NCBI RefSeq assembly: GCF_988242995.1
Contig: NZ_OZ547043.1
DNA length: 64,000 nucleotides
Reading direction: 5' to 3' (one strand)
Shown: in pieces, positions 1 to 54,276 of the stretch
How the letters are laid out: each line of letters opens with the position of its first letter
Numbering within the stretch: the stretch's first letter is position 1
Translations under genes and position numbers: made by a program
The notes under the pieces: generated by a model
Database searches by the model: none
What the model was told of the DNA's origin: nothing
What the model saw: only the letters and a program-made list of their open reading frames with translations

Positions 1-347
1 ATAAAACGTCATCGCTGCGTAAATCGGTATGCAGCGATCTCCTCACTCTTTTTAATTCTCCTCATTCGGCATTACCGTCATTACTTGTTTCAGGCATGCC
101 CGAGTGGCAAGTGCATAACCCGAGCGACAAACATCTCCAGAGCTGGTATTGCCGTCAGCTGCGTTCTGCACTGTTATTTCATGAGCCACGGATTGCGGCG
201 TTGCAGGTTAATTTGAAAGAAGCGTACTGCCACACTCTGGCGATCAGCCTTGAGATAATGCTGTACCACGACGATGAACCGCTAACGTTTGATCTGGTCT
301 GGGATAATGGCGGTTGGCGCAGTGCGACGCTGGAGAATGTCAGCTAA
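1..347 (+). CDS. iraD: Anti-adaptor protein IraD (YjiD), 3' portion only; gene starts upstream of the window
   Basis: Open frame runs from the window edge (translation from nt 3: [31 protein letters not shown], continuing into the ORF-track peptide [21 protein letters not shown]...); stop at 345-347; matches IraD C-terminus from memory. Confidence 0.8.
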
Positions 348-1251
348 GCACAATCTCCAGCTCGCGCAGTTCACGCCAGAAGCGTTCGGCAACGGGATTC
401 ATGCGGGTATTCATCCGGTATGCATAGGCCTGAATCGGGATCACCAGTTCGTCCCGATTCAGTACAACGAGCTTCCCGCTGCGAATTTCTTGTTGGATGG
501 CGTACTCCGGCAGCCAGGCAATCCCACAGCCGTCGAGGGCAACCTGCTTTAAAAGCTCGCTCATCGAAGAGACAAAAAAGGTGCTGAAACTTAACTCACT
601 GTGGCGCGTCAGGGTGCGATTAATCAATCGCCCCATGTAGGAGTTGCGGCTGTAATTCAGTAACGGAAAGTGTGGCTGCGCGAGGTTAAAAAGTGCTTCT
701 CCGTGTTCGTCACTGGCGCAGACAGGGAACAATTGAGATTCAAATAAGCGAATGTGGTCAAACGGCGCTTCCAGCAAATCTTCGTCGTGAAAGGAAAAAA
801 TACAGTCACTTTGCCCTTCACGCAGTTTATCGACCGCTTCATCGACATCAATAGCTTCAATTGCCCAGGTAAAGAGCGGCGGCATCTGGCTGATAATGGA
901 CGGTAACAGCCCGAGGGAAAGAGAGTGTGCAGCGGCTATCTTGATTTTTCGTTGCGCGTAATCGCTGCCGCCACGCAGCTCTGCCAGATTGCTCTCTAAC
1001 TGTTGCAACAGATGGCGGATCTGCGAATGGAAGATTTTCCCTTGTTCTGAGAGTTGCAGCGGCGTTACCTGGCGGTTAAACAATTCAACACCAATCGCCT
1101 GTTCCAGCGCACGGATGCGGCGGCTGAATGCCGGTTGCGAGACGTTGCGACTGACTGCCGCCTGGGAAAAATTGCGGCATTTTTCCAGGGTCAGAAAATC
1201 ATAAAGCCATTTGGTTTCAATATTATGCAAAATCGCACCACAGTCATCCAT
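340..1251 (-). CDS. hypT: LysR-family transcriptional regulator HypT (YjiE), hypochlorite-responsive
   Basis: 303-aa ORF; N-terminal LysR HTH ([31 protein letters not shown]); synteny with iadA. Confidence 0.85.
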
Positions 1252-1315
1252 TACGTTTTACTCTGTCAGCCGCCCTTGCGGGCATTCTACGTCCATTCGG
1301 GCGGCTGACAACCGT

Positions 1316-2488
1316 TTAAGCCGTTTCAAACGTTCCTTTCACGCAGGCTTTGCCGTCTTTGACCATCAGTTTGCCGCGAGCGTATACCTGCTCAATGCGC
1401 AGTTCTGGCGTCATGACCAGCAAGTCAGCATCATTGCCTGGCAGAATTTCGCCTTTCCCGGTCAGGTTAAGGAAACCGGCTACGCTACTGGTGAGCGGGC
1501 GCAGGGCATCGCTGATACTGAAATCATAGTCTTTGACCAGCACCTGCACGGTTTCCAGCAACGTTTCAAAACCGGCAACACCGATATGGGTTAAATTCCC
1601 TTCGTCATCGAAGAACGGCTGGCTACCGTTGCCGTCGGAGCTGAGGGTGACGCGTGCCAGCGGAATACCCGCCTGAACGGCGCGGGCAATACCTTCGGCA
1701 GGGGCGACCGGTTCGTCAATGCTGCTGGTGATATCGATGGTGCCGCCTTTGCGCGCGAACTCCAGCGCCTGCTCAAACAACGGTACGTTGCGGTTAACGT
1801 GGGTCGGCAGCAGCTTGCTGATCGGCACATCGCAGTTTTCCAGCAGGTCATAAATAGGCTGTAACGCCTTTTTACTGTCGCCCATGTGGAACACGGTGAC
1901 GCCAGGTTTACCGCCGAGCAAACCGCCAACGCGGGATTCTGCCGCCATATTGGCCAGGCGATAAACGTCCGGTGCGGCAGAACGGTGATCAGAGATGGCG
2001 CATTTCACGCCAATCACACGATCGATAATCGCCACGTCTTTTTCCACGGAACCCGTAATGGTGCGGGAAGGGACATGATAAGCGCCGGTCAGCATCCAGG
2101 CGCTGATGCCTTCTTCATTGAGCGCACGGGTCTTGGCGAGCAGGGATTCCGGGTGGCGAGAGATAGAGTCGGTGCCCAGCAGACCAACCACTGACGTGAC
2201 GCCCGCTTCCGTCAGGCGACTTAGCGCCACTTCCGGCGTGCGCGTCGTGGGACCTGCTTCGCCGCCACCGCCAATCAAATGGACGTGTTGATCAATAAAA
2301 CCTGGGCAGAGGATCTGCCCACTGAGATCGACAACCGTGCAGTTCGGTACAATGTCAGAAGGGATATTGCTGGCAACGGCGATAATTTTGCCGTTAGCGA
2401 CGAGGACATCGCAAATTCCCCGATCTTCCGGCGCATACAAATGCGCTCCCTGCAGCAGGGTAAAACCGGCTGCGGTATAATCAATCAT
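1316..2488 (-). CDS. iadA: Isoaspartyl dipeptidase IadA (amidohydrolase superfamily)
   Basis: 390-aa ORF; metal-binding HxH near N-terminus (IDQHVHLIGGGGE); matches E. coli IadA length and synteny. Confidence 0.9.
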   Translation of the reverse strand: MIDYTAAGFTLLQGAHLYAPEDRGICDVLVANGKIIAVASNIPSDIVPNCTVVDLSGQILCPGFIDQHVHLIGGGGEAGPTTRTPEVALSRLTEAGVTSVVGLLGTDSISRHPESLLAKTRALNEEGISAWMLTGAYHVPSRTITGSVEKDVAIIDRVIGVKCAISDHRSAAPDVYRLANMAAESRVGGLLGGKPGVTVFHMGDSKKALQPIYDLLENCDVPISKLLPTHVNRNVPLFEQALEFARKGGTIDITSSIDEPVAPAEGIARAVQAGIPLARVTLSSDGNGSQPFFDDEGNLTHIGVAGFETLLETVQVLVKDYDFSISDALRPLTSSVAGFLNLTGKGEILPGNDADLLVMTPELRIEQVYARGKLMVKDGKACVKGTFETA

Positions 2489-2500
2489 GGTAACTCCTTG

Positions 2501-2962
2501 TTAAACAATAAGCTGCATAACCCAGATCGACAGCAATGCGTTAATCACGCAGACCGTAATGATATGCGGGTAATATTTGGCATTCACTTCGGCTGTCCCC
2601 AGGCAGCGACCGACATTTTGCACCGGGTTGCCCATTAAATACATCGCGGGCAGTAAAACGGTGACATCGTGACCGGTTAATGCGCCAGCGGTTGCCAGAC
2701 TGGCGGCAACACCGACTGCGCCACCCATACTCATTAATGCGGCTAAAAGGACGGTTGCCGCTTCACCGGGTAATCCCCACAGCGCCATTACGGGTTCACA
2801 GATATGCCCCACCCAGTCGAGCAGGCCGGTAATTTTCAGCGCCTGAATGATGACAAACGCCATCACCACGTTTGGCAGCAGGTTGGTCGTGGCGATAGTA
2901 AAGCCACGGCGCGCGCCATCGATAAACATATCCATGACGTTTTTGCGGACCTGAGTTGTCAT
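2501..2962 (-). CDS. yjiG: Inner-membrane protein YjiG (SpmB-like nucleoside-recognition-domain half-transporter)
   Basis: 153-aa hydrophobic ORF; 4-nt ATGA overlap with yjiH stop implies translational coupling. Confidence 0.8.
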   Translation of the reverse strand: MTTQVRKNVMDMFIDGARRGFTIATTNLLPNVVMAFVIIQALKITGLLDWVGHICEPVMALWGLPGEAATVLLAALMSMGGAVGVAASLATAGALTGHDVTVLLPAMYLMGNPVQNVGRCLGTAEVNAKYYPHIITVCVINALLSIWVMQLIV

Positions 2963-3642
2963 GCTTGCGCTCCTTGCGTTGGGTTGCGACGTTCTTCGAA
3001 GTTAAGCCAGACGCGCAAAATGTTGGCTCCGACAAATTTAAACACCAGGATGACGGCTAAAGGTACGATTACGGACGTGCCCAGAAAGGCAAACACCGCG
3101 ACGCCGGAAGAGAAGTAGTTGGTGATGATGGCGCTACCGCTGGTTTGATATGCGGCGAAAATCACTTTATCGCGTTCGGTAATTTCACCTTCCTGCGCCA
3201 GCTCTTTGGTCATACCGGCGGCGGCATCGGTGTTTTGCAGGTTAGCGATCAGCGCCAGCGAGCAGATCCCAGGAATGCCCAACAACGGTTTTAGCACAGG
3301 TGTCATTAACTGCTGCGCGGCGCGTAATCCACCAAGACCATCGGTAATTGAAATAATCCCCAGAGAGAGAATGACTGACGGTGCCAGCTCCAGCGCAAAG
3401 AGAAAGCCATCTTTAGCCCCCGCGCCACCCGCGCCGCGAAATGAGGTGGTGGCTCCGTTCGCACCAGGCAGTTGCCCAAACGATCCGTTCAGAACGGAAA
3501 AATCAAAAACGCGCCACCAGCTGTCTGTTCCGGAAAAAACACCGGAAAAAAAGATTATGGTGAGAAAAAAGGCCAGATACCCTTTAATGCCCACTTTTTC
3601 TGTCGCCAGCTCCCCGGCTACAGCATCCCCTTGTTGTGTCAT
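2959..3642 (-). CDS. yjiH: Inner-membrane protein YjiH (SpmA-like)
   Basis: ORF-track 231 aa; start placed at the second Met (227 aa), which has an upstream GGGGA Shine-Dalgarno; hydrophobic membrane protein. Confidence 0.75.
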   Translation of the reverse strand: MTQQGDAVAGELATEKVGIKGYLAFFLTIIFFSGVFSGTDSWWRVFDFSVLNGSFGQLPGANGATTSFRGAGGAGAKDGFLFALELAPSVILSLGIISITDGLGGLRAAQQLMTPVLKPLLGIPGICSLALIANLQNTDAAAGMTKELAQEGEITERDKVIFAAYQTSGSAIITNYFSSGVAVFAFLGTSVIVPLAVILVFKFVGANILRVWLNFEERRNPTQGAQA

Positions 3643-50414: not shown

Positions 50415-50636
50415 CTTTTATTCCCGATTGCGTAGTTTGGCAAAAGTAAGTGATGTAAATGTGATCTAATTAACAAACTATTTACATTTAAAGATAATAA
50501 AATATTAAATATCAGCAAGTTAACAAAACATGCTCAATTTTGATAAAATGAAGAATTGCAGGGGCAGCGCAGTCCCGGTAACGTGATGATTAACTGTTTC
50601 TATATTAATGATTTTGAATTTTTCAGGGGAAAGATA

Positions 50637-51083
50637 ATGCACGACTCTCTAACCATTGCGTTGCTCCAGGCGCGAGAAGCGGCGATGAGTTATTTTCGCC
50701 CAATCGTTAAACGGCATAATTTGACTGAGCAACAGTGGCGCATCGTGCGTATTCTGGCGGAAAGCCCATCAATGGATTTTCACGATCTGGCGTATCGCGC
50801 CTGCATTTTGCGCCCAAGCCTGACCGGGATCCTTACGCGGATGGAACGCGACGGTTTAGTGTTGCGATTAAAGCCGATCAATGATCAGCGGAAGCTCTAT
50901 ATCTCGCTAACCAAAGAGGGGCAGGCGCTGTATAACCGCGCTCAGACACAGATTGAAGAAGCCTATCGGCAGATTGAAGCTCAGTTTACTGCCGAGAAAA
51001 TGCAACAGTTAACCCATCTGTTAGAGGAATTTATTGCTCTGGGCAATTCCCGACAAGAAGCCATCCCGGGCGATAATGAATAA
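50637..51083 (+). CDS. hpaR: MarR-family repressor HpaR of the hpa meta operon
   Basis: Start at ATG 50637 (AGGGGAAAG Shine-Dalgarno) gives 148 aa (MHDSLTIALLQAREAAMSYFRPIVKRHNLTEQQWRIVRILAESP...); MarR winged HTH. Confidence 0.85.
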   Translation: MHDSLTIALLQAREAAMSYFRPIVKRHNLTEQQWRIVRILAESPSMDFHDLAYRACILRPSLTGILTRMERDGLVLRLKPINDQRKLYISLTKEGQALYNRAQTQIEEAYRQIEAQFTAEKMQQLTHLLEEFIALGNSRQEAIPGDNE

Positions 51084-51201: not shown

Positions 51202-52866
51202 ATGTTAAAACGTATCAAGATCGTGACCAGCTTACTGCTGGTTTTGGCCGTTTTTGGCCTTTTACAACTGACATCAGGCGGTCTGTTCTTTAATGCCTTA
51301 AAGAATGACAAAGAAAATTTCACTGTTTTACAAACCATTCGCCAGCAGCAATCCACGCTGAATGGCAGCTGGGTCGCGTTGTTGCAGACGCGTAACACCC
51401 TCAACCGCGCGGGTATCCGCTACATGATGGATCAGAATAATATTGGTAGCGGTTCAACCGTTGCTGAGCTGATGCAGAGTGCCAGTATTTCGCTGAAACA
51501 GGCGGAAAAAAACTGGGCGGATTACGAAGCGTTGCCGCGTGACCCGCGTCAGAGCACCGCCGCAGCGGCAGAGATCAAACGTAATTACGATATTTATCAC
51601 AATGCGCTGGCGGAGCTGATCCAACTGTTAGGTGCAGGCAAAATCAACGAGTTCTTTGATCAGCCGACCCAGGGATATCAAGACGGTTTCGAGAAGCAGT
51701 ATGTGGCTTACATGGAGCAAAACGATCGGCTCTATGATATCGCCGTCAGCGATAACAATGCCTCCTACAGCCAGGCGATGTGGATTCTGGTGGGCGTGAT
51801 GATCGTCGTACTGGCGGTCATCTTCGCCGTCTGGTTCGGTATTAAAGCCTCGCTGGTAGCGCCAATGAATCGCCTGATTGACAGCATCCGTCATATTGCA
51901 GGCGGCGATCTGGTGAAACCGATTGAGGTGGATGGCTCTAATGAGATGGGGCAACTGGCAGAGAGTTTGCGCCATATGCAGGGAGAGCTGATGCGTACCG
52001 TCGGTGATGTGCGCAACGGGGCCAATGCCATCTATAGCGGTGCCAGCGAAATCGCTACCGGCAATAACGATCTCTCTTCGCGCACCGAGCAACAGGCCGC
52101 TTCGCTGGAAGAGACGGCAGCCAGCATGGAGCAACTGACCGCAACGGTGAAACAGAACGCCGAGAATGCGCGCCAGGCCAGCCATCTGGCGTTAAGTGCT
52201 TCTGAAACGGCGCAACGCGGCGGCAAAGTGGTAGATAACGTGGTGCAGACTATGCGCGATATCTCCACCAGTTCGCAGAAAATCGCCGATATTATCAGCG
52301 TAATTGACGGCATTGCCTTCCAGACCAATATTCTGGCTTTGAACGCGGCGGTTGAAGCAGCGCGTGCGGGTGAGCAAGGGCGCGGTTTTGCGGTGGTTGC
52401 GGGAGAAGTGCGTAATCTGGCCCAGCGTAGCGCTCAGGCGGCTCGTGAAATTAAAAGCCTGATTGAAGACTCGGTGGGGAAAGTGGATGTTGGCTCTACG
52501 CTGGTCGAAAGCGCCGGGGAAACAATGGCGGAGATTGTCAGCGCCGTGACCCGCGTGACGGACATTATGGGCGAAATTGCTTCTGCTTCTGATGAGCAGA
52601 GCCGTGGTATCGATCAGGTTGGCTTAGCGGTTGCTGAGATGGACCGGGTAACTCAACAGAACGCCGCGCTGGTGGAAGAATCTGCCGCTGCCGCCGCCGC
52701 GCTGGAAGAGCAGGCCAGTCGCCTGACCGAAGCTGTGGCAGTGTTCCGGATTCAGCAACAGCAGCAACAGCAGCGTGAAACATCGGCTGTGGTAAAAACC
52801 GTGACGCCAGCTGCGCCGCGTAAAATGGCCGTGGCAGATAGCGAGGAGAACTGGGAAACATTTTAA
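51202..52866 (+). CDS. tsr: Serine chemoreceptor Tsr (methyl-accepting chemotaxis protein I)
   Basis: 554-aa ORF; two TM segments, HAMP, conserved MCP signalling domain, C-terminal NWETF pentapeptide; sigma-28 promoter upstream. Confidence 0.95.
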
Positions 52867-52877
52867 TCGCCATGAAA

Positions 52878-52907
52878 ATGCCCGATAAGCAAAATGTTAT
52901 CGGGCAT
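52878..52907. terminator. Stem-loop between convergent tsr and lgoT; possible bidirectional terminator
   Basis: 11-bp stem ATGCCCGATAA / TTATCGGGCAT with an 8-nt loop, 12 nt after the tsr stop and 8 nt after the lgoT stop. Confidence 0.5.
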
Positions 52908-52914
52908 AAGGAGA

Positions 52915-54276
52915 TTAATCTTTACGTGGGTCGTTGATCGGCTGACGAACCAGGAAGATGTACGCCAGTGCCCCCGCTGCGGTGACGCAACCGCAGATGA
53001 TTAGTGCCAGACGGAATGAGTGGGTGGTATCAACAATAAAACCAGTAATGATCGGCGCAAAAGAGGCGCAGATGAAGCTGGCAAAGTTCTGGATACTGCC
53101 CACCGACGCAGTCATGCGAGAAGCAACTGCGACGTGGATCAAGCCCCAGCAGGATGTTCCGGCAAAGTGAATACAGAACAGTGCCATGCCAATCAGCAGA
53201 ACCGCCGTCATGGATGTTGTCGCTTGTGGTACTATCAGCGTAAAGGCGGCAGAACAGAACATCCCGGCAATAATGCAGATCTTACGGCTTTTAATCGGAG
53301 CCATTCCCCCTTTGACCAGCCAGTCAGTAACGTAACCGTTGACCAGCATCCCGGCAGCCCCAAACAGGAAAGGGATAGCCGCCATCAACCCTGTGCTTTT
53401 TAAATCCAGGTTATAGGCTGTTTGCAGGTAACCAGGAAGCCAGGCCAGATACAGCCACGCAGTGTAGTTGATGCCACTGAATCCGAGCATCATTCCCCAC
53501 ATTGTACGGTTACGGAACAGGCTGCGCCATTCGGCAAAACTGAGCGGATCTCGGCGGGCATTGACGCTACCTGCATTGAGATAAGCTTGTTCAACGGCAG
53601 TCAGTTCTACGTGCTCGCGGTTGCGATAGAGCATATACCAGCCGATGGCGAGAAAAATCCCCAGTACACCAATGGTAATAAACATCCCGCGCCAGCCCAT
53701 CACCAGCATCATCGCCGCCAGAATCGGTGGGCTTACGGCAACGCCAATGGTAGAAGCTGCGTTGAAGAAGCCCATCGGGCGTCCGCGCTCTTTGATGTTG
53801 AACCAGTCGTTAATGACTTTTACACCGCATGGGTTCATCGGCGCTTCACCAATCCCCATACCGATACGCACCAACACGAACTGCGTAAAGTTGTGCACCA
53901 TGCCAGACATTGCCTGGAACAGTGACCAGAAGAACATCCCCAGTCCCAGCATCAGGCGTGGGCCTTTACGATCCAATAGTGGGCCGCAAGGAAGTTGCGC
54001 AATCCCGTAAGCGAGTGAAAACACGGAGAGCAAAGCGCCGATTTCGGTGGCACTTAATCCCAATTCTTCACGAATCGTTAAATTTGCTACCGACAGCGAA
54101 CTGCGGTCGAGATAATTGATTACCGCCGCAAAAAATAATAACAACATGGCGGTGGTTTGAATGCGTTTAATTCGGGTACTGCGTTGAACTAATCCATCTG
54201 GTGGCACGGGAATATCTGCCGACGAAGATGGAGTAAATGAAGAACGCGGATCGAGGGTGATATTTTCTTTTTCCAC
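52915..54276 (-). CDS. lgoT: MFS transporter LgoT (YjjL), probable L-galactonate/H+ symporter
   Basis: 453-aa ORF; MFS anion:cation symporter-like; synteny with lgoR and lgoD. Confidence 0.85.
   Translation of the reverse strand: MEKENITLDPRSSFTPSSSADIPVPPDGLVQRSTRIKRIQTTAMLLLFFAAVINYLDRSSLSVANLTIREELGLSATEIGALLSVFSLAYGIAQLPCGPLLDRKGPRLMLGLGMFFWSLFQAMSGMVHNFTQFVLVRIGMGIGEAPMNPCGVKVINDWFNIKERGRPMGFFNAASTIGVAVSPPILAAMMLVMGWRGMFITIGVLGIFLAIGWYMLYRNREHVELTAVEQAYLNAGSVNARRDPLSFAEWRSLFRNRTMWGMMLGFSGINYTAWLYLAWLPGYLQTAYNLDLKSTGLMAAIPFLFGAAGMLVNGYVTDWLVKGGMAPIKSRKICIIAGMFCSAAFTLIVPQATTSMTAVLLIGMALFCIHFAGTSCWGLIHVAVASRMTASVGSIQNFASFICASFAPIITGFIVDTTHSFRLALIICGCVTAAGALAYIFLVRQPINDPRKD

Follow-up and report, generated by a model that had tools for sequence, protein, structure and literature searches.

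We found that the glutamine run near the C-terminus of the Escherichia coli serine chemoreceptor Tsr is encoded by a genuine in-frame tandem repeat with a 9-bp unit, and that the copy number of this unit varies among E. coli strains. The repeat was studied in a window of 64,000 nucleotides, which is the whole stretch of DNA that was analysed. In the window, the tract reads CAG CAA CAG CAG CAA CAG CAG and follows the formula (CAGCAACAG)n+CAG with n = 2, whereas other strains carry n = 1, 3, or 4 (the alleles are referred to below by their number of glutamines as 4Q, 7Q, 10Q, and 13Q). As a whole, we considered it likely that the 9-bp ladder was produced by slippage or recombination, with n = 2 as the probable ancestral state and a mild or neutral effect predicted for the tether on which the run lies.

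The identity of the gene was addressed by annotation, domain content, and comparison with K-12. The RefSeq matches were all annotated as tsr and were placed between hpaR and lgoT. Pfam domains were assigned to the window Tsr as TarH at residues 1–176 (E 9e-55), HAMP at 217–263, and MCPsignal at 327–484 (E 2e-62); thus, the protein showed the Tar-type periplasmic ligand-binding domain, the HAMP domain, and the signalling domain of a methyl-accepting chemotaxis protein. The window gene and tsr of K-12 strain DH1 were orthologous, with 17 SNPs over 1,656 ungapped sites, and the last 188 residues of the window protein were identical to K-12 Tsr (PDB 6S1K) save for a 3-residue gap in the glutamine run. 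The DH1 gene is 1656 nt long, encodes 551 aa, and carries CAG CAA CAG CAG (4Q) at this position, with flanks that are otherwise identical. A preliminary description of the locus had set the 554-aa reading frame against a length of 551 aa for K-12; these lengths were confirmed, and a single 9-bp unit accounts for the whole difference. The reading frame ends in the pentapeptide NWETF, which follows a non-conserved linker, and W551, E552, and F554 were invariant across a set of 81 orthologues (80 Tsr proteins from other Enterobacteriaceae plus that of the window). From orthology we infer that the window Tsr senses serine and binds CheR and CheB through its pentapeptide. The features are collected in table 1.

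Table 1. Positions of tsr, its polymorphic repeat, and the C-terminal tether in the window.
Feature	Position	Strand	Basis
tsr coding sequence, 554 aa plus stop; serine chemoreceptor	51202..52866	+	Open reading frame, RefSeq annotation, Pfam, identity to K-12
Non-conserved C-terminal tether, I517–E549, 33 residues (30 in K-12)	52750..52848	+	Conservation over 81 orthologues; K-12 boundaries from PMC4692393 and PMC10561060
Polymorphic tract (CAGCAACAG)x2 + CAG, Q518–Q524	52753..52773	+	Sequence, Tandem Repeats Finder; alleles with n = 1–4 sequence-verified in other E. coli
Unit copy 1 (CAGCAACAG)	52753..52761	+	Sequence, Tandem Repeats Finder
Unit copy 2 (CAGCAACAG), missing in K-12	52762..52770	+	Comparison with K-12; loss of copy 1 and loss of copy 2 are indistinguishable
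Codons of the NWETF pentapeptide, CheR/CheB docking site	52849..52863	+	Sequence; orthologue conservation

The seven-glutamine run of mixed CAG and CAA codons was already recognized in the preliminary description, and direct reading of the sequence confirmed its position and its frame within the 554-aa protein. The unit, on the other hand, had been taken for a trinucleotide, which did not hold. The top call of Tandem Repeats Finder gave a period of 9 with the unit CAGCAACAG, 2.4 copies, and 100% matches, so that at least two copies stand head to tail, and the period of 3 appeared as a secondary call with 78% matches. We gave virtually no credence to the explanation that the run is not a real feature, being instead a chance series of glutamine codons, an error of assembly, or an element of nucleic-acid structure. 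The pattern (CAR)7 occurred once in the 64-kb window and in none of 100 dinucleotide-preserving shuffles, which argues against chance, and an assembly error is at odds with the recurrence of identical alleles across thousands of complete genomes obtained independently and across replicate assemblies. Folded as DNA, the tract did no better than shuffled sequences (z = +1.46), and hairpin propensity was absent; on this result, we discarded the idea that the repeat acts as a DNA hairpin or in another structural way.

Two other features of the 3' part of tsr were recorded. An antisense open reading frame of 102 aa (52565..52873, minus strand), which covers the 3' end of the gene and reads the repeat as CTG and TTG codons, was dismissed as a mechanical reading frame in a highly conserved gene. 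A second small repeat, CTGCCG x 3.2 at 52682–52700 of the window, encodes AAAAAA at residues 495–500; these alanines were invariant or nearly so over the 81 orthologues, unlike the glutamine run, and no length variation of the alanine run was seen among the sequences examined.

We determined the allele frequencies in the 5,382 tsr-bearing complete E. coli genomes and observed four lengths. The two-unit allele of the window (7Q, 554 aa), which is also found in ST131, O157:H7, 5132, and 12089, was carried by ~4,078 genomes (75.8%). The one-unit allele (4Q, 551 aa; K-12 DH1, SH21PTE31, 33E, and APEC E123) was carried by ~1,222 genomes (22.7%), with K-12 and BL21 among them, and this count is inflated by K-12 and BL21 derivatives, as the collection is skewed to clinical and laboratory strains. 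The longer alleles were rare: 72 genomes (1.3%) had three units (10Q, 557 aa; for example AF16, HS, LF82, KSC64, 94-3024, and Es_ST80), and three genomes had four units (13Q, 560 aa; Z1323HEC0355, RM14723, and A13). In cumulative terms, the run reached at least 4Q in 5,375, at least 7Q in 4,153, and at least 10Q in 75 of the 5,382 genomes, with thresholds under which any 5Q allele would be counted as 4Q, any 6Q or 8Q allele as 7Q, and any 9Q allele as 10Q; the 7 genomes outside the first count were 5'-truncated alignments. No allele longer than 13Q was found in the 5,382 genomes. When the allele sequences were compared, all four shared identical flanks of 18 nt on the left and 30 nt on the right, and thus differed by whole units. 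Among the ~360 matches listed, no length fell off the 4/7/10/13 ladder. A search of metagenomes for 22–30-nt tracts likewise gave no off-ladder length, with five contigs that all carried 30-nt tracts, and no tract of 31–61 nt was found in the metagenome contigs scanned. The length polymorphism that had been suspected was therefore borne out, and strains do not all share the 7Q form. The sole interrupted repeat seen was on a metagenome contig (ERZ772818 NODE-24, positions 1692–1748), where one CAG>CAT change in a run of 10 codons gives QQQQQQQQHQ.

The collection comprised 5,426 complete E. coli genomes, of which 5,382 had the 3' region of tsr. In the query for counting, an over-long repeat was appended to the 100-nt left flank, such that the alignment stops where the repeat of the subject stops, and the query lengths were set so that a count at 80% coverage splits adjacent alleles. 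An earlier count anchored on the right flank seeded in only 3,663 of the 5,382 genomes, because several lineages carry SNPs in the 32-nt right flank. Another earlier count with a 60-nt left-flank anchor missed 236 genomes, and 7Q alleles with a SNP on the 5' side reached just 79.8% coverage. Allele-specific queries with full flanks were avoided, because gapped or joined alignments would give the wrong alleles 100% coverage. The 3' region of tsr was unmatched in 44 of the 5,426 genomes, in which the gene may be lost or disrupted. Three matches to this region lay on plasmid records of the same collection.

We addressed the history of the repeat with a tsr gene tree that comprised 19 alleles from E. 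coli, was rooted with outgroups, and was built on 1,656 ungapped sites (85 variable), and on which copy number was treated by ordered parsimony. The 4Q allele was observed in three tsr clades and the 10Q allele in four. In particular, the window (7Q) differed from HS and KSC64 (both 10Q) by a single SNP over the 1,656 sites, Es_ST80 (10Q) differed from RM14723 (13Q) by 5 SNPs, and E200139 (7Q) and TW10828 (4Q) both belonged to the genomes that most resembled the window across 24 kb, with an identity of 99.7%. The tree required ~9 unit steps (bootstrap range 7–11) versus 3 if each state arose once, a step count that is not a rate because rare alleles were deliberately represented in the choice of strains. 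As near-identical tsr haplotypes differ in copy number, the pattern argues for repeated gain and loss of units. Intragenic recombination may mimic some of these events; because the tree is short and tsr may recombine, some recurrences could represent allele transfer and not new slippage. We proposed that whole 9-bp units would be gained or lost by slipped-strand mispairing, or alternatively by recombination between the 12–30-nt direct repeats of the array, and that each step would add or remove QQQ while leaving the reading frame intact. The copy number was constant in four assemblies of HS, in three of strain 8178, and in many K-12 derivatives; since replicate assemblies keep their copy number, the slippage rate appears to be low on laboratory timescales, and the locus does not behave as hypermutable.

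The direction of change was examined in the orthologues and at the root of the gene tree. The modal length of Tsr was 554 aa, found in 48 of the 81 sequences with the window included, and the lengths ranged from 551 to 557 aa, plus one of 569 aa. In the 80 Enterobacteriaceae orthologues, the longest glutamine run within the last 60 residues did not exceed 3, and the usual motif was FRI-QQ(E/D/T/A)QQ-(R/K)-x-(R/H)-(E/D). The outgroup scan gave no representative of E. coli, E. fergusonii, or E. albertii, and its nearest outgroups were two Escherichia genomes (L010 and L013). These carry IQQTQQRQHEALPVVKT and IQQAQQRQHEALPVVKT, both in proteins of 554 aa, the length of the 7Q form, and their motif IQQ(T/A)QQRQHEALPVVKT is equal in length to the 7Q form as well. 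Parsimony required 9 unit steps with a 7Q root versus 10 with a 4Q root, and the best root state was 7Q in 78 of 100 bootstraps and 4Q in the other 22. The sequence of the 7Q allele also contains a 12-nt direct repeat through which misalignment could remove a unit; in 4Q, just 3 nt of repeat are left to seed a duplication. Thus, because 7Q is the majority form, 554 aa is the modal length, and the 7Q root is favoured, and also because a deletion from 7Q would have the 12-nt repeat at its disposal, we proposed that the ancestral state of E. coli was probably n = 2, that the tract of K-12 and BL21 has contracted by one unit, and that the window represents the standard form.

The preliminary description had read the direction the other way, with the 4Q of K-12 as the reference state and the 7Q of the window as an expansion of three codons by trinucleotide slippage. 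This reading is unlikely, and its view of the window as an expansion relative to K-12 is probably wrong. It is true that 4Q and 7Q differ by exactly three glutamine codons, and those 22 bootstraps with a 4Q root speak for it. A route through a short form is also possible: the outgroup QQAQQRQHE would become the 4Q-like QQ-QQR--E by one substitution and two small deletions, and a later 9-bp duplication would then yield 7Q, which would make 4Q the older allele. However, beyond its share of 76% of the genomes, 7Q was the form carried by the ST131, O157:H7, and window-like lineages among the tsr backgrounds that we examined; the modal orthologue length and the more parsimonious root likewise stand against a 4Q start, and a 9-bp duplication from 4Q would have to be seeded by its 3-nt direct repeat. 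Slippage by single trinucleotides is further contradicted by the ladder itself, on which all lengths seen were spaced by 9 bp and not by 3 bp. An ancestral two-unit tract with contraction in the K-12 and BL21 lineages thus remained our preferred reading.

The position of the run within the protein was defined by the 81-sequence alignment. Conservation was near-complete up to F515, R516, and I517, then collapsed, and came back only at R540, K541, and N550–F554. This agreed with the placement of the run between the signalling body and NWETF in the preliminary description. Because conservation stops at I517, the glutamine run is the first segment of the CheR/CheB tether. Residues past 517 have been treated as non-conserved (PMC4692393), and the tether of K-12 Tsr has been counted as 30 residues from I517 (PMC10561060). 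On this count, the tether has 30 residues in 4Q, 33 in 7Q, 36 in 10Q, and 39 in 13Q. As the run sits between I517 and NWETF, the one effect that can be predicted for it concerns the chain by which CheR and CheB are kept close to the methylation sites. With engineered Tar tethers of 22, 29, 34, and 46 residues, the peak of tethered CheR shifted linearly by 0.128 +/- 0.048 nm per residue, and methylation-site distances step by ~1 nm (PMC10561060). These Tar data make the influence on CheR/CheB tethering that the preliminary description had suggested plausible. By extrapolation from Tar, one unit would move the tethered CheR peak by ~0.4 nm. This step is smaller than the spacing of the methylation sites, and we therefore expect the difference between 4Q and 7Q to be mild or neutral and 13Q to alter the kinetics of adaptation modestly at most. 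The shorter tether of Tsr has been argued to suit its closer methylation sites (PMC10561060); the tether of the 7Q majority, with 33 residues, nearly equals that of Tar, with 34.

Two other readings of the variation were weighed against this expectation of a flexible tether with small effects. One is that the run extends the C-terminal methylation helix, such that each unit would add ~0.45 nm of semi-rigid stalk and would shift the anchor of the tether and not the length of its coil. In the AlphaFold2 monomer model, a helix from 394 to 528 continues straight through Q518–Q524. Polyglutamine placed after a helix propagates helicity in a length-dependent manner, which also counts for this reading. 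However, the model is weak, with a mean pLDDT of 68.8 overall that falls from 64 at residues 511–520 to 47 at 521–530 and below 35 beyond, and it represents a monomer, whereas the protein is dimeric. Conservation, moreover, stops just before the run, and the C-terminus of Tar and Tsr is described as an unstructured linker in PMC7390727 and PMC10561060 (the former citing Bartelli and Hazelbauer 2011 and Li and Hazelbauer 2006 for a tether made of an unstructured linker plus NWETF). We therefore regarded the helical extension as doubtful. The other reading is that copy number is a tuning knob under selection, because tether length sets the reach of CheR and CheB and different niches settle on different lengths; the 30/33/36/39-residue series would then be naturally selected for the kinetics of serine adaptation. 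The changes are recurrent and always in frame, two alleles occur at appreciable frequency, and in Tar the length of the tether measurably alters CheR positioning and adaptation precision (PMC10561060). Against these points, no association of alleles with host or source was visible among the matches listed, in which each allele came from humans, livestock, and the environment. The predicted step is small, and beyond the run the tether shows little sequence conservation, with orthologue lengths that vary by a few residues. In addition, K-12 with its 4Q allele is fully chemotactic. Such selection thus seems quite improbable to us. If it did operate, the K-12 Tsr of nearly all work would be a minority short-tether variant, most E. 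coli would have a Tsr tether of 33 residues that is essentially equal to that of Tar, and the argument that matches tether to methylation sites (PMC10561060) would rest on an atypical allele.

The repeat can be compared with several known systems. The tether studies on Tar and Tsr concern the same protein segment, as the glutamine run opens the ~30-residue chain counted from I517 in K-12 Tsr (PMC10561060), but they used K-12 receptors and engineered deletions and insertions in Tar, whereas the series described here is natural, belongs to Tsr, and comes from a DNA repeat. The tract resembles the coding tandem repeats used for bacterial typing (MLVA) in its short unit, its whole-unit variation, its homoplasy on the gene tree, and its preserved frame; it differs in having very few copies (1.3 to 4.3 units) and in its apparent stability in laboratory lineages. 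We did not find the run as an MLVA locus in the searchable literature. Phase-variable contingency loci also involve repeat-mediated change in an environment-facing gene. The tsr unit, however, is a multiple of three; all four alleles give full-length Tsr proteins of 551, 554, 557, and 560 aa, with no shift of frame or promoter spacing that would turn expression ON or OFF, and hypermutability is not evident. With such a unit, the tract is not an ON/OFF contingency locus. Finally, eukaryotic CAG/CAA tracts likewise encode polyglutamine of variable length in mixed codons, but in tsr the 9-bp unit carries the CAA along, the run has 4–13 glutamines, there is no hairpin propensity, and the product is a bacterial enzyme tether.

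The 7Q sequence itself is already known, with thousands of copies in RefSeq and one in a solved structure. Chain A of PDB 3ZX6, an Af1503 HAMP–Tsr chimera, matches positions 52300–52863 of the window over its residues 154–341 with the 7Q run and with the substitutions A>T and E>G within the tether; because it carries the 7Q allele, the Tsr part of this structure is not from K-12. A literature search that extended to the journals outside most subscription titles gave no description of the repeat polymorphism, the 9-bp unit, or the allele frequencies. The run is a fresh example of a familiar kind of feature, the in-frame coding tandem repeat, in a protein that has been studied intensively. Quantitative studies of Tsr have relied almost entirely on the K-12 allele; if the tether is longer by 3 residues in three quarters of E. 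coli, and by 6 or 9 in some, then K-12 numbering and arguments from tether length miss the typical allele. The alleles also provide a natural, isogenic-like length series in which the tethered-enzyme model of adaptation can be tested without engineered sequences, and the tract is a clean 9-bp marker that divides E. coli tsr haplotypes. Our understanding of chemotaxis is unchanged by these results, and the phenotypic effect is expected to be small.

The neighbourhood of tsr differed among strains. Directly upstream in the window lie hpaR (50556–51083, plus strand) and the hpa (4-hydroxyphenylacetate) operon, which reaches to ~40000, and many strains have the same arrangement; at the K-12 DH1 locus, hpaR was absent from the 242 nt upstream of tsr. 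Downstream, positions 52867–54276 of the window comprise an intergenic segment and lgoT, which encodes an MFS transporter on the minus strand, as also in K-12, O157, and ST131. In ~865 of the 5,382 genomes, for example LF82, 5132, 12089, and SH21PTE31, similarity to the window ended ~9 nt past the tsr stop codon, and genes for a TRAP transporter permease were found instead. Several alleles of the glutamine run occurred in both of these downstream contexts.
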